From assembly GCA_963783375.1 (NCBI GenBank), contig CAWANH010000029.1:800001-864000 (forward strand): a stretch of DNA of 64,000 nt, in the 5' to 3' direction. The position numbers and the translations under genes were made by a program. Below are positions 17,036-20,822 of the stretch, in pieces (positions within the stretch are counted from its first letter, which is position 1; each line of letters starts with the position of its first letter). The notes beneath the pieces were generated by a model that ran no database searches, was not told the origin of the DNA, and saw nothing but the letters and a program-made list of their open reading frames with translations. This DNA is from Candidatus Eiseniibacteriota bacterium (GTDB lineage Bacteria; Eisenbacteria; RBG-16-71-46; JABDJR01).

Positions 17036-17323
17036 TCACGAGATCACGTATCCACGCCGTGCGGCGATCTCCTCCTTGTGCTTCTCCACGAGCAGCATCC
17101 ACTCCGTGCTGCCCGGGCTCAGATTCCGCGAGTAGGTCCCCAGACGGTCGACCGCTTCATGAGTGATCTCGTCCTCGATTCGCAGATCCGCGATCAGAAA
17201 ACGGGCGATATCCCGCTCCAGGGCTCCACGACGGCCCTCGAATCGCACCAGGTCGGTCCGGCTTTCCAGCAACCCCGCCAACCGGGCGGCTATCCGCTGG
17301 ACCTTCTCTTCGCTCAGCCTCAC
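17036..17323 (-). CDS. DUF507 family protein
   Basis: MRLSEEK...EDEI...K..IAARRGYVI pattern recalled as DUF507; paralog of the adjacent gene. Confidence 0.7.
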   Translation of the reverse strand: MRLSEEKVQRIAARLAGLLESRTDLVRFEGRRGALERDIARFLIADLRIEDEITHEAVDRLGTYSRNLSPGSTEWMLLVEKHKEEIAARRGYVIS

Positions 17324-17345
17324 CGGTTTCCTCTCTCGTGCCCGC

Positions 17346-17627
17346 TCAGATCACAATACCCCGTTCCCGGGCCAGTTGTTTCTTGATTTTGTCCCGCAAT
17401 AGGGCGATGTCCATGCTCTGGGCGTCGATTCGCGAGCGATACTGGGCCAGCACCCTCTCGACGTCCCGATCCAGATCGTCCTCCAGGGCCAGTTCGTCCC
17501 GGATGGCCGTGGCGAGCAGAAGGGTCACGGCGTCCTGGCTCTTCAGAAACTCGGTATCCTCCCGGGCGTCGATCCACACGGTCAGTTTCCCGGCCAAGTC
17601 CCGTATCTTTCTGGGGGACAACCGCAT
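17346..17627 (-). CDS. DUF507 family protein
   Basis: MRLS...EDDLDRDV...IKKQLARERGIVI; GGGAGGGAG RBS. Confidence 0.75.
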   Translation of the reverse strand: MRLSPRKIRDLAGKLTVWIDAREDTEFLKSQDAVTLLLATAIRDELALEDDLDRDVERVLAQYRSRIDAQSMDIALLRDKIKKQLARERGIVI

Positions 17628-17667
17628 AGAAATCTCCCTCCCCGCCCGGCGGTCCTGCGCTTGGTGT

Positions 17668-17697
17668 ATTCTCACGAGCGACCGGATTCCTTGTCAA
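17668..17697 (-). promoter_or_regulatory. Putative sigma70 promoter for the DUF507-tol-pal genes
   Basis: TTGACA-18 nt-GAGAAT on the - strand. Confidence 0.55.
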
Positions 17698-18031
17698 GCA
17701 GACGGCGCGCCTCGGGTCGAGGGTCCGTCCGCCCCCGACAGACGAATTCGAGCCGCCGGAAACGCTTTTTGCCACGAGTCGTTTGCGAATGAAGGGACCT
17801 CTCAACGTGGCCCGGCTCGAACCGATTCCCGCCTACTCCTCGAGTCGGTACCTGCAACTTTCTTTTAGTTCCATTCTCGACCGGCCGCCGTAACCCTGGG
17901 CGGCCTCAGAGAGAAGCCCTCGTTACTGTAAAGAAATTTGTCAATGAAATGGTTCCGAAATAATCAGGACCGTTTGCCCGGATTTTTCTGCAATGCCGTC
18001 GGCATACACCGTATTTTTTCCACGTACCGGA

Positions 18032-18060
18032 TTGTGACCGTGCGGTATGGATGCTAGGAT
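18032..18060 (+). promoter_or_regulatory. Putative sigma70 promoter (extended -10) for the winged-helix gene
   Basis: TTGTGA-17 nt-TAGGAT with TGn immediately before the -10, inside an AT-richer intergenic region. Confidence 0.45.
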
Positions 18061-18158
18061 TGACCCATGTGCAATAGATTCCCCCGTATTGTACAGCTAC
18101 GGGTAGAATCTCCTTCTCCATACCAGCATCTTGCGCGAGACGCGAAGAGGGAGGAAAC

Positions 18159-18590
18159 ATGGCTCGTTCCAAGAAGGGCTTGAGCCGCAGAGGCCGGCGC
18201 CCCAGTCTGAAGGTCGCCGCCCGGAGGGCGGGCAAGCTCCAAAATGACGTCAAGAGTCTCTTAGCGGATCTGGAGGATCTGGAACGAAGACTCGTCCGAC
18301 TGGATACCCTCCTCGAGGCGAGCAGGAAAGCCGATCGAGAGAAGCTCAAGAAGAAGCGGTCCAGCCGCAGCCAGGGGATCCGTGGAAAGGGACCCAACGT
18401 CCGCGATCTCGCCTATCAGTTCCTGGCTCGCCGGAAGAAGCCGATGGGCATCCAGGAAATCAGCCAGCACGTGCTGAAGGGAAAGAAGGGGCAGGCAGGC
18501 GAAAATTTCACGCAAAATCTCGGAGCCGCCCTGGCGCGCGACTCGAGGTTCCTGCGCGCCGGTCGCGGCGTCTACACGGTCAAGAAATAG
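18159..18590 (+). CDS. Basic coiled-coil plus winged-helix (HARE-HTH/Rok-like) putative DNA-binding protein
   Basis: GGAGG RBS. Lys/Arg-rich N-tail, heptad coiled coil, basic linker, C-terminal VRDLAYQFL...PMGIQEI...LARDSRFLRAGRGVY. Confidence 0.7.
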   Translation: MARSKKGLSRRGRRPSLKVAARRAGKLQNDVKSLLADLEDLERRLVRLDTLLEASRKADREKLKKKRSSRSQGIRGKGPNVRDLAYQFLARRKKPMGIQEISQHVLKGKKGQAGENFTQNLGAALARDSRFLRAGRGVYTVKK

Positions 18591-18616
18591 TCCCTATCGC
18601 CTGGACGTCACACCAT

Positions 18617-18652
18617 GCGGGGCGAAGCGGTACACCGTTTCGCCCCGCTTTG
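18617..18652 (+). terminator. Intrinsic terminator
   Basis: GCGGGGCGAAGCGG-TACA-CCGTTTCGCCCCGC followed by TTT. Confidence 0.75.
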
Positions 18653-18754
18653 CCTGGATATCCGGATGTATCCCCGGTTCCCCCATGGACGGGTAGACTG
18701 GACGTATCGTGGATCTCCGGTCGGGTTTCCGTCCGCTACGGGTGAAATCGATCC

Positions 18755-18783
18755 TTGACGCCCCCACCCCGGGGCGGGAGAAT
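18755..18783 (+). promoter_or_regulatory. Putative sigma70 promoter with no convincing downstream CDS
   Basis: TTGACG-17 nt-GAGAAT. Confidence 0.6.
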
Positions 18784-18789
18784 CCGTGG

Positions 18790-18920
18790 TCAGCGAAGCG
18801 GATTTCCTGTGCTGCGCGTCATCGTTTGGGCACCGCAATGACCATATCAGCGAAGCGAAGCAGGTACTGTTTGCGGGCACCGGAACGGACGGGGTGATCG
18901 GGATTCCGCTTCCTTTATAT
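18790..18920 (+). ncRNA. Candidate ~125-nt rod-shaped small RNA, family unassigned
   Basis: Own promoter. End pairing GAAGCGGA (18795) / TCCGCTTC (18905-18912), inner stem CCGCAA/TTGCGG, then a CTTTATAT tail. Confidence 0.5.
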
Positions 18921-18998
18921 CCCGTCAATCCCCCGGGGCGGCCGCGGTCGGCCCACCCGATGTCTCCCCCCCTACCGTGACCGGTCCCGACGATCCCC

Positions 18999-20582
18999 CT
19001 ACCGGCGCCGCCGGAACACCGTGTAGGTCTTCTGGGTGGCCGGGGGCGCATCCCGAGCCACGGTATAGAGTTCCCGGAAGCGGGGACGGGCCAGGAGCGC
19101 CCGGCGGAAGTCCAGACGATCGGGATTTCCCTCATAGTCCTTGAGCGCCCGCAGGCGATGCTCGTTCAGCTTGATTCCGTAGTCCCATACGATCCATCTC
19201 GGCTGCAGATCGAGCAGACGATCGAGGTCGTAGCGATGGTGGCCGGGGGCCCAGGCCCCGCCGTGGCGGGGGCGCCAGGCGCGGACGTCGGGATCGTTGA
19301 TTCCCAGCACGTCCAGGGTGGGGAGGCCCGAGAAGTACGGAATGGCTCCCGCGGCGGTCACCGCCACCGTGTCCCCCGGAGCAGCAACCTTGTCGAGCCA
19401 CCGGGCGAGTTCTTCACCGATCAACGGATAATCGGCGATCCGGTCCCGGGTGGACCAGCCCAGGGCCAGTTGAGCGGCCAGGACCCCGCCGACCACCAGG
19501 GCGTGGACGCGGGGGCGGCCGATTCCCCCCTCCGCCCGCCGCCAACCCTCGGCGAGCAGCAGATAGAATGCGGGTAACACCGGGGCCAGGTAGCGAGTCT
19601 TCCCCATCCAGTCTCCCCCCGCCGCCAGCACGAAGAGGCCCTGGAAGACCAGCCAACCCATCGGGAGGAGCGGCCACCACCGGGCCCCGTCCCGGGGCGC
19701 GGTCGTCCGCCGGCCTACCAGGAGCAATGTCCCGATCAAGACCGCCAGGGCGAGCCAGCCGGCGTGGGCCAGCGCCCACCCTCCCAGGTCGGCGGCTCCA
19801 TGCACCCACGGCGCGGCCCCGGTTTCCATCTTGGCGTAGAAGGTGTTCGGCACGACGCGGTGGTAGAGGCGCCAGCGCAGAAGCAGATACGCCGCCGCCG
19901 GGATCATGCCCAGAAGCCAGCCCGCGAGGAGGCGCCGCCGGGACCAGGCCCCCCAGACGAGCCACGTGAGGCCCCAAAGCGCCCAGGCTGGGCCCTCGGG
20001 TCTGGACAGGGTCAGAAGCGCCCCCAGTCCCCCCAGGGCGAGCCCTCGGGGGAAGCCGGCGCCCCCCTTGGGGGACGCCCCGGCCGCGACCCCCATCCAC
20101 CCCGCGATGAGGAGAGCCGCCGACACCGTCTCGAGCCCGGATCCCGCCCATACCGCCAGCCCTACATCGGTCGTCGTCCCAGCGACCAGGATGGCGGTGG
20201 CGGTCCCTCCCAGATTCCTCCGACGGGCCAGGGCGAACAGAACGGGCGTGAGCAGGAGGTAGGCCCCGAGTCCCAGCCAGGGAGCGGCGCGGTGGGGTGG
20301 GACGCCGAGGCGGGCACCCCCGGCCAGGACGAGGGTCCACAGAGGATTGGAGAATCCCTCGACCGCGGTCCCGCCGTTGAAGGTGAGGCCTTTCCCGGCG
20401 GCGAACCGGGCGGCGTAGCGAAAGGAGATGTACGCGTCGTCGACCATGGCCCCCCCGTGGGCCCGGAAGAGGACGGCGAAGAGCAGAACCTGAACAACCA
20501 GGAGGAGACCCACCAGGACCGCGGGCGAGCGAAGCAGGGATCGGGTTGGGGGGGCCGGAAGTGACTCTTCCGAAGTCCTCAT
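18999..20582 (-). CDS. Polytopic membrane protein, GT-C-type glycosyltransferase-like (AftB-like)
   Basis: DDAYISFRYA, VEGFSNPLW, SGLET, RPEG, PNTFYAK, GGDWM..RY, AGAIPY motifs; many TM segments. Confidence 0.65.
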   Translation of the reverse strand: MRTSEESLPAPPTRSLLRSPAVLVGLLLVVQVLLFAVLFRAHGGAMVDDAYISFRYAARFAAGKGLTFNGGTAVEGFSNPLWTLVLAGGARLGVPPHRAAPWLGLGAYLLLTPVLFALARRRNLGGTATAILVAGTTTDVGLAVWAGSGLETVSAALLIAGWMGVAAGASPKGGAGFPRGLALGGLGALLTLSRPEGPAWALWGLTWLVWGAWSRRRLLAGWLLGMIPAAAYLLLRWRLYHRVVPNTFYAKMETGAAPWVHGAADLGGWALAHAGWLALAVLIGTLLLVGRRTTAPRDGARWWPLLPMGWLVFQGLFVLAAGGDWMGKTRYLAPVLPAFYLLLAEGWRRAEGGIGRPRVHALVVGGVLAAQLALGWSTRDRIADYPLIGEELARWLDKVAAPGDTVAVTAAGAIPYFSGLPTLDVLGINDPDVRAWRPRHGGAWAPGHHRYDLDRLLDLQPRWIVWDYGIKLNEHRLRALKDYEGNPDRLDFRRALLARPRFRELYTVARDAPPATQKTYTVFRRRR

Positions 20583-20735: not shown

Positions 20736-20822
20736 TGGTGCGGAAGAGGGGACTTGAACCCCTACAGGATTGCTCCTACAAGGCCCTCAACCTTGCGCGT
20801 CTGCCAATTCCGCCACTTCCGC
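20736..20822 (-). tRNA. tRNA-Leu(GAG)
   Basis: Reverse complement reads GCGGAAGTGGCGGAATTGGCAGACGCG-CAAGG-TTGAGGG-CCTTG, a long variable arm, GTTCAAGTC, and ends TTCCGCACCA; usual position after secG. Confidence 0.97.

Follow-up and report, generated by a model that had tools for sequence, protein, structure and literature searches.

The 64,000-nt stretch of Candidatus Eiseniibacteriota DNA analyzed here (the window; contig CAWANH010000029.1, positions 800,001 to 864,000, numbered below from its first letter) contains, on the forward strand, a gene for a 143-aa HARE-HTH protein at 18159-18590 (Pfam PF05066, E 1.3e-5, 26 bits at a cut-off of 25.9), which is the candidate partner of the RNA described in this study. 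Behind it lie, on the same strand, a GC-rich hairpin followed by TTT (18617-18651) that is likely the terminator of that gene, a sigma70-type promoter (18755-18783) and a small RNA of ~122-125 nt (18792-18916), and downstream of these a convergent gene on the reverse strand encodes a 527-aa multi-pass membrane protein without a Pfam match (18999-20582). Two adjacent short genes at 17036-17675 each match one half of DUF507. The surrounding block (tolB-pal, DUF507, secG, tRNA-Leu) is largely syntenic. In the following, the source genome is G000, the other genomes are G001 and so on, and L-numbers denote loci.

The near-consensus promoter named in the original prediction, TTGACG-17-GAGAAT, is present at 18755-18783 and was the sole promoter-like site that the promoter scan found within 18000-19800 (1 versus 0.2 ± 0.4 in shuffles). 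For comparison, 13 copies of the element (12 distinct, mean column identity 69%) were collected in alignment A3, from which the near-duplicate loci L092, L094, L096 and L098 were excluded. The -35 box reads TTGACA in nine of the 13 aligned copies and is one mismatch off in the other four, and the -10 box follows NANAAT in 12 at a spacing of 17-18, the exception being G001 with GAAGCT at 19; the boxes are conserved, while the spacer sequences between them are not. The -10 box ends 6-8 nt before the AGC of the 5' end in 13/13 copies. From this spacing, transcription would start at ~18792, either on the A of AGC or 1-2 nt ahead of it, giving a predicted product of ~122-125 nt. The first base of the -10 box is never T in the 13 copies, and TTGACA-17/18-NANAAT occurs eight times in the whole of G000 (first base G in four, T in three and A in one) versus ~0.2 expected, which together suggest that the first -10 position may be relaxed in housekeeping promoters of this lineage.

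Upstream of the promoter, the terminator of the original prediction stood in part: the hairpin at 18617-18651 is strong and GC-rich (-30.3 kcal/mol for 18616-18660), but only three T follow it and the terminator scan did not call it. Its 5' arm holds GCGAAGCGG, the same word as the RNA 5' end. The locus L085 has GCGGAGCGG at the matching hairpin position and the other homologues are without such a word, so the shared word is possibly an old local duplication or chance.

The predicted fold of the RNA is a rod that spans 18792-18912. The long irregular hairpin that had been traced by eye, consisting of 18795-18809 with 18899-18912, GTC/GAC, CGTT..GG/CC..AACG and CCGCAA/TTGCGG, is contained in the MFE fold with all of its parts. 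The folding significance varies with the chosen ends, with a z of -2.96 for 18790-18915 (1/200 shuffles) and of -1.66 for the wider ends 18785-18925 (10/200 shuffles). At the 5' end is the first copy of the motif AGCGAAGCG (18792-18800), of which the AGC is found in 12/12 sequences with an unpaired probability of 0.54-1.0 and the remainder opens the terminal stem. This stem, P1, is seen both in the alignment and in the ensembles, and it pairs GAAGCGGA (18795-18802) with 18905-18912. On the same two grounds P2 pairs CCTG (18806-18809) with CGGG (18899-18902). Further inward, segment A (18817-18826) pairs in the rod with ~18884-18893, and the alignment places the inner stem P5 at CCGCAA (18833-18838) with TTGCGG (18871-18876). 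The single long arm is capped by an apical region of 30-34 nt with a short variable hairpin, in which the second copy of AGCGAAGCG lies (18849-18857; AGCGWAGCG in the aligned homologues). The 3' strand of P1, TCCGCTTC, and a pyrimidine/T tail occupy 18905-18920, with CCGCTTC invariant in 13/13 copies. The T-rich tail that had been described is weak in G000 itself (CCTTTATAT) and is well developed, with 7-8 T, in G001, G004, G007 and L093.

The 32-pair rod that was tested for covariation was named from the alignment itself; 88.1% of its 379 cells are paired, versus 30-50% in slid registers. Double changes were found in 32 cells versus 13.9 ± 3.1 in shuffles (0/500 as high) and in 10 of the 32 pairs versus 7.0 (18/500 as high), counts that overstate the independent events because the sequences are related and mostly form two clades. 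They affect five of the 12 pairs of rod helix 3, to which segment A belongs, and five of the eight pairs of P5, where CG/UA, UA/CG and AU/GC exchanges occur and the pairing probability is at least 0.84 in 11 of 13 single-sequence ensembles. In P1, 96.9% of cells are paired, the pairing probability is 0.96-1.0 in 13/13 single-sequence ensembles, six of the eight pairs never vary and there are zero double changes. The sequence of P1 (GAAGCGGA/YCCGCUUC) hardly varies, whereas the inner helices vary and compensate: the inner helices covary and the terminal stem is conserved by sequence instead. The positions conserved as unpaired are the 5' AGC, the AC after P5 and the loop motif, in which A61, A66, G67, C68, G69 and A71 (numbering of A3) are conserved in 10-12 of 12 sequences with unpaired probabilities of 0.6-0.8. 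The loop motif is eroded in L093 (4/9 identical) and partly in L087 and G001.

No credible coding sequence had been expected here, and the ORF at 18786-18980 is without a Pfam match and in 10 of 12 homologues a stop codon interrupts the translated part of its frame. Judged from these alignments, the ORF is unconserved and the element non-coding. The element thus has its own promoter, a conserved covarying structure and no conserved ORF, which places it in the broad kind of stand-alone structured bacterial sRNAs. The original prediction of an independently promoted, non-coding rod-shaped small RNA was borne out, no Rfam family describes the candidate, and we regard the locus as a real structured sRNA with high confidence.

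The 11-mer TCAGCGAAGCG occurs twice as predicted, at 18790 and 18847. An 11-mer repeat within 131 nt was met in 529 of 20,000 random genomic windows and in 26 of 20,000 shuffles, and given the former count the repeat alone is only moderately unusual; among homologues it is kept, with 7-9 of 9 positions identical in 11 of 12. The two copies had been proposed to compete for the 3' CGCUUC, an idea that was not supported, as the pairing probability of the loop copy with the 3' end is 0.0 in 13/13 full-length ensembles. Segment A (18817-18826) is the better alternative for the 5' copy, which pairs with it at a probability of at least 0.74 in nine of 12 prefixes of 45 columns. In this register 91.5% of cells are paired with zero double changes, the rod beats the 5' hairpin form by 4-20 kcal/mol in 12/12 sequences, and in none of the sequences does the 5' hairpin surpass shuffles in stability (21-229 of 300 were as low). 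The pairing of the 5' copy with segment A is at most a folding intermediate. Pairing of the loop copy with segment A (80.9% of cells paired) showed no excess over shuffles, and for the second motif copy a conserved single-stranded site is the better reading.

Two metatranscriptome runs (X9 and X11) hold a relative that is ~91% identical. In X11 an unstranded contig with a depth of 3.6 lies over 18807-18916 and extends 42 nt past the tail, and this run is without a contig over 18582-18806, where the DNA run X7 has cover from 18656. The upstream 143-aa gene is covered in both RNA runs, in X9 without cover of the RNA. Over 20 kb, the RNA runs fill 21 and 19 of 30 bins and the DNA runs 29 and 30 of 30, with contigs that show neither strand, ends nor level. 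The single weak, unstranded X11 contig of the relative fits transcription of the RNA.

BLAST with the RNA covered 61 genomes and returned two full-length relatives near E 0.001, in G004 and G007. When the upstream protein was used as an anchor, it was found in nine of the 61 genomes (the weak ninth locus, L040, was left out of the RNA tally); the RNA lies behind the anchor gene in G000, G001, G004 and G007 and is absent there in G003, G006, G008 and G009, where the membrane gene comes almost immediately after the anchor. In the fragmented genomes G002 and G005, neither gene nor RNA was found. Among 22 metagenome loci of the protein, 13 have the RNA (39-116 bits under a four-sequence model), five are without it and four end too early; the adjacency of these copies is by design, since the protein served as bait. 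Column identity among the homologues is ~70%, and covariance model matches of 69.6-122.9 bits were obtained in 14 syntenic loci. The 13-sequence model R2, run on whole genomes, gave strong matches in four of ten genomes of the order, every one of which adjoins the HARE-HTH gene on its downstream side, and across 151 genomes of the phylum it gave three matches, all in family f1. No true copy was found by R2 in 2.0 Mb of G003 DNA. The RNA is present once in G000 (BLAST) and once per genome (model), a copy number that rules out a MITE or REP-type repeat.

Pattern searches reached further. A GTDB-wide exact pattern yielded two true copies (L117 and L122) among the 80 scored of 106 matches, with the rest at or below 21.6 bits; L117, a family member, scores 102.7 bits. 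This exact pattern sets no bound on the range, because copies of the L089 and L093 types would be missed. A looser pattern in five genomes recovered the G004 copy and otherwise unrelated-looking sequences, and one exact pattern on viral contigs gave 19 matches (best 14.4 bits under model R1) that were read as chance. Among weak model matches of 15-23 bits in G002, G003, G009 and G027, L253 overlaps a called gene on the opposite strand and L216 and L217 look coding-like. As far as these searches go, the RNA appears to be restricted to one family of uncultured bacteria.

The protein encoded upstream has a basic N-terminus, a long helix (predicted coiled coil at residues 17-72) and a C-terminal HARE-HTH winged helix, with the conserved motifs RRGRxPS and GIRGKGPNVRD. 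Its structure model (pLDDT 87.9) predicts a helix of 55 residues and a winged helix, and the best fold matches are a chain of an S. aureus RNAP complex (8x6g_E), the Rok DNA-binding domain, the N-terminal domain of B. subtilis delta and Zalpha domains, all of them weak (E 0.003-0.03, ~20% identity). The match to PF23159 WH_Rok has an E of 0.069, and a language-model search led to unnamed HARE-HTH clusters, which are commonest in Planctomycetota. With Rok and RNAP delta (RpoE) the protein thus shares a predicted long N-terminal helix and a HARE-HTH/WH domain; it differs from them in that its family is order-restricted within the phylum and the fold matches are weak. The protein is likely nucleoid- or RNAP-associated. 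A search of the literature on HARE-HTH proteins and RNA binding, by title and the start of abstracts, found no RNA partner.

The distribution of gene and RNA bears on whether the two are linked, as the original prediction had suggested. The 143-aa gene is strong in eight of 206 genomes of the phylum, all of them in the order, so the range of the RNA is nested in that of the protein. The RNA without the gene was met in none of the genomes searched, while the gene without the RNA is found in four of the eight (G003, G006, G008 and G009) and in five of the 18 informative metagenome loci. On the protein tree, which is poorly resolved, the presence of the RNA needs four changes, and by eye no residue of the protein alignment separates RNA-positive from RNA-negative proteins. 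Other neighbours are held less tightly. The membrane gene is conserved beside the locus in most relatives and is not a fixed partner, because it is missing beside the RNA in G004 and G007; the DUF507 pair was not found at the locus in G004, G006, G007 and L087, is partial in G003, and its presence does not follow that of the RNA. The 143-aa gene and the RNA are still together in G004 and G007, where these flanking genes were not found. A link between the RNA and the adjacent DNA-binding protein would therefore fit the distribution, and the adjacency may also be inheritance alone because the whole block is largely syntenic.

Among known RNA families, Rfam searches at gathering thresholds and at E up to 10, over the window region and 11 further loci, placed no family on the RNA; the sole match in the window was the tRNA-Leu at 20739-20822 on the minus strand, with chance-level matches only in the RNA region. 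Our search of the literature found no description of the RNA, which supplements and motif collections outside Rfam could hold. A match to the hairpin ribozyme RF00173 (15.8 bits versus 65, E 2.5) covers the AGCGAAGCG word only and was unseen in homologues, and where the P1 core GCGGA/UCCGC resembles the acceptor stem of the nearby tRNA-Leu, the resemblance amounts to just five GC-rich pairs with no conserved CCA-like end; both were rejected. The RNA belongs to no family tested and represents a new, lineage-restricted structured sRNA family of a known kind, the stand-alone structured bacterial sRNAs.

The suggestion of a divergent housekeeping RNA had to be dropped, because a canonical SRP RNA and two 6S RNAs are encoded elsewhere in G000 and the lineage 6S profiles miss the candidate. 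The small SRP RNA is at C29:1084073-1084172 (73.1 bits), the sole RF00169 match in G000. The canonical 6S RNA is at C29:533224-533404 (L348), is 91% identical to that of G003 and scores 142.8 bits on R3, a 6S model built from 15 lineage 6S RNAs that finds both genuine 6S RNAs of G000. The second one, at G000:C17:21819-21973 on the minus strand (L349:1501-1655), is 155 nt long, has a shortened upstream arm and is followed by a T run; it scores 49.6 bits on RF00013 versus a cut-off of 46.4, and 61 bits on R3. A blank RF00013 search of G000 was a false negative, since BLAST and R3 found these two RNAs, and the RF00013 blanks in G000, G001 and G002 may be filter losses. Overall, 6S is above the cut-off in 51 of 61 genomes, with two full-length RF00013 matches each in G005 and G012 and two above the cut-off in G059, and G004 and G007 have both a canonical 6S RNA and the new RNA. 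A tmRNA with the tag ATDNTQFALAA was located at G000:C3:189336-189690.

Several of these classes resemble the new RNA in part. With 6S RNA (RF00013) it shares the stand-alone rod, the paired 5' and 3' ends, the irregular helices, a similar length of the closing arm and patchy paralogues (G000 having two 6S RNAs), and it differs in its size (~122 versus 155-189 nt), in being without a second arm or a closed central bubble, and in the absence of the lineage-invariant 6S words and of model matches in either direction. With bacterial small SRP RNA (RF00169) it has in common the rod shape, the approximate size and an asymmetric loop close to the tip; it is without the tetraloop-capped helix 8, its SRP-like motif is unconserved and it is not universal. 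The Y RNAs, partners of Ro60, are ~100-130 nt long, and their paired ends form a sequence-conserved stem that is read by the protein; in bacteria they are patchy and encoded near the partner gene. The size, the conserved end stem, the patchiness and the place near a candidate partner gene recur in the new RNA, in contrast to which no TROVE/Ro60 protein was found in five genomes and there is no Rfam match. CsrB/RsmZ-type RNAs share a repeated short motif in a stand-alone RNA and the decoy mode proposed below, and they differ in that many GGA loops stand against two copies of AGCGWAGCG and the conserved GGA of the new RNA lies in a stem.

The RNA probably works through protein binding, since the sequence-invariant P1 and the loop motif, conserved as unpaired, point to protein recognition. 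Three familiar partners were searched for in G000, G001, G004, G003 and G006: Hfq was found in 0/5 genomes (control rings 5/14), CsrA in 0/5, and TROVE/Ro60 in 0/5, three of these genomes being RNA-positive (control rings 2/14). The mode of action can thus not be borrowed from the usual sRNA machinery, because Hfq, CsrA and Ro60 were not found. Pairing of the RNA with the neighbour's 5' UTR did not go beyond shuffles (z -0.96 to 1.61 in 11 cognate pairs).

Of the single partners considered, the adjacent winged-helix protein is the most likely, ahead of each rival, although this assignment is tentative. The fixed position of the RNA behind the 143-aa gene, its nested range and the retention of the pair in G004 and G007 would speak for the neighbour; the gene without RNA in four of eight genomes, the four changes on the protein tree, the neighbour's fold matches to domains that bind DNA or sit on RNAP, and the fact that kin are not independent would speak against a strict partnership. 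With more reserve still, we propose that the RNA may be a dedicated decoy for a Rok/RNAP-delta-like winged-helix protein, encoded behind the gene of its target, carrying two AGCG(W)AGCG sites and tuning global transcription or silencing. As a stand-alone gene it would be transcribed from its own sigma70-type promoter with a start at ~18792, and its 5' and 3' ends would pair into P1, which would double as a terminator together with the T tail. Recognition would fall to this invariant stem and to both AGCG(W)AGCG elements, one at the 5' end and one in the apical loop, and RNA binding would titrate the winged-helix protein off DNA or RNA polymerase.

Somewhat less likely than the neighbour as partner is another protein of the family's genomes, bound by the same kind of structured sRNA at a position that is merely inherited. 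The same structural evidence applies to such a partner, and the neighbour persists where the RNA is missing. Against it, 97 genes of G000 are candidates for loss in the RNA-less G003 according to a synteny-bounded search covering 2.4 of 4.6 Mb of G003, and by eye there is no obvious RNA-binding protein among them; one of the 97 reads like an RNA pseudouridine synthase.

It seems rather unlikely that the RNA is a 6S-like decoy of RNA polymerase, either an analogue of 6S or a shortened paralogue that has diverged far from it, in which the arm would mimic the downstream duplex and the 30-nt apical loop would mimic the bubble. The arm does meet the loop at ~nt 48, near the start of the unpaired stretch in lineage 6S RNAs, and G000 already keeps a shortened 6S RNA of 155 nt. 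Size would be compatible with this function, as PMC8876501 describes truncated B. subtilis 6S-1 RNAs of 78-82 nt that still bind RNAP and template pRNA. In these truncated RNAs two arms still close a bubble, a feature that the new RNA is without; having no second arm, it can form no closed central bubble. Furthermore, arm alignments with the 15 lineage 6S RNAs were not above shuffles (190/200 and 127/200 as high), the words TTTTGAG, GGTTCAAA and CCCACCT, each in 15/15 lineage 6S RNAs, are in 0/13 copies of the new RNA, nhmmer gave no match, R3 on 10 loci gave a best overlap of 6.4 bits on the wrong strand, and R2 gave none on the 15 6S loci.

An equally doubtful reading is an Hfq-independent base-pairing sRNA that would use the loop motif or a three-hairpin form on mRNAs. 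An alternative fold does exist, with the 5' motif and segment A paired in nascent transcripts; the rod is favoured over it, the 5' hairpin is not above shuffles and the alternative fold is without double changes. Complements of the motif near gene starts, searched for in G000 only, were not enriched (0 for the 9-mer; 56.7 versus 80.3 per Mb for the 8-mer).

We consider it improbable that the element is the leader of an attenuator or riboswitch that has been orphaned, or a palindrome, vestigial or functioning at the DNA level, with no role as RNA. The promoter, the structured RNA and the T tail are leader-like and the element has been lost several times, but the loci that reach far enough show a convergent membrane gene or a tRNA-Leu behind the RNA and no same-strand gene, and a riboswitch or attenuator leader was rejected on the ground that no same-strand gene lies directly downstream. 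The covariation and the conservation of the promoter at ~70% identity, together with the single copy per genome, also stand against this reading. That the element is another SRP-like RNA, with helix 8 shortened and Ffh as partner, can be dismissed as very improbable, since the ACCA-UAU-CAG loop of G000 and L085, followed by a purine-rich stretch, which we take to recall SRP domain IV, and the UCAG...AAGCAG likeness to helix 8 that had first been noticed are set against the loss of the motif in most homologues, the lack of a tetraloop-capped stem, the canonical SRP RNA elsewhere in G000, and an SRP search of G000 and nine homologous loci that stayed empty up to an E of 10.

The significance of the RNA is bounded by its narrow range, one family, and by a function read from its features, and within these bounds an uncultured lineage gains a structured RNA family with good support. 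With an RNA this short and a soluble candidate partner of 143 aa, the main hypothesis, a decoy for the adjacent winged-helix protein, is testable in vitro without need of the organism. If it is RNA polymerase that binds the RNA, the latter would be a naturally occurring minimal analogue of 6S that lacks the 6S sequence. Binding by the neighbour would bring Rok/delta-type winged-helix proteins under RNA control, and the decoy, if true, would join 6S and CsrB as a new class of RNAs that sequester proteins.
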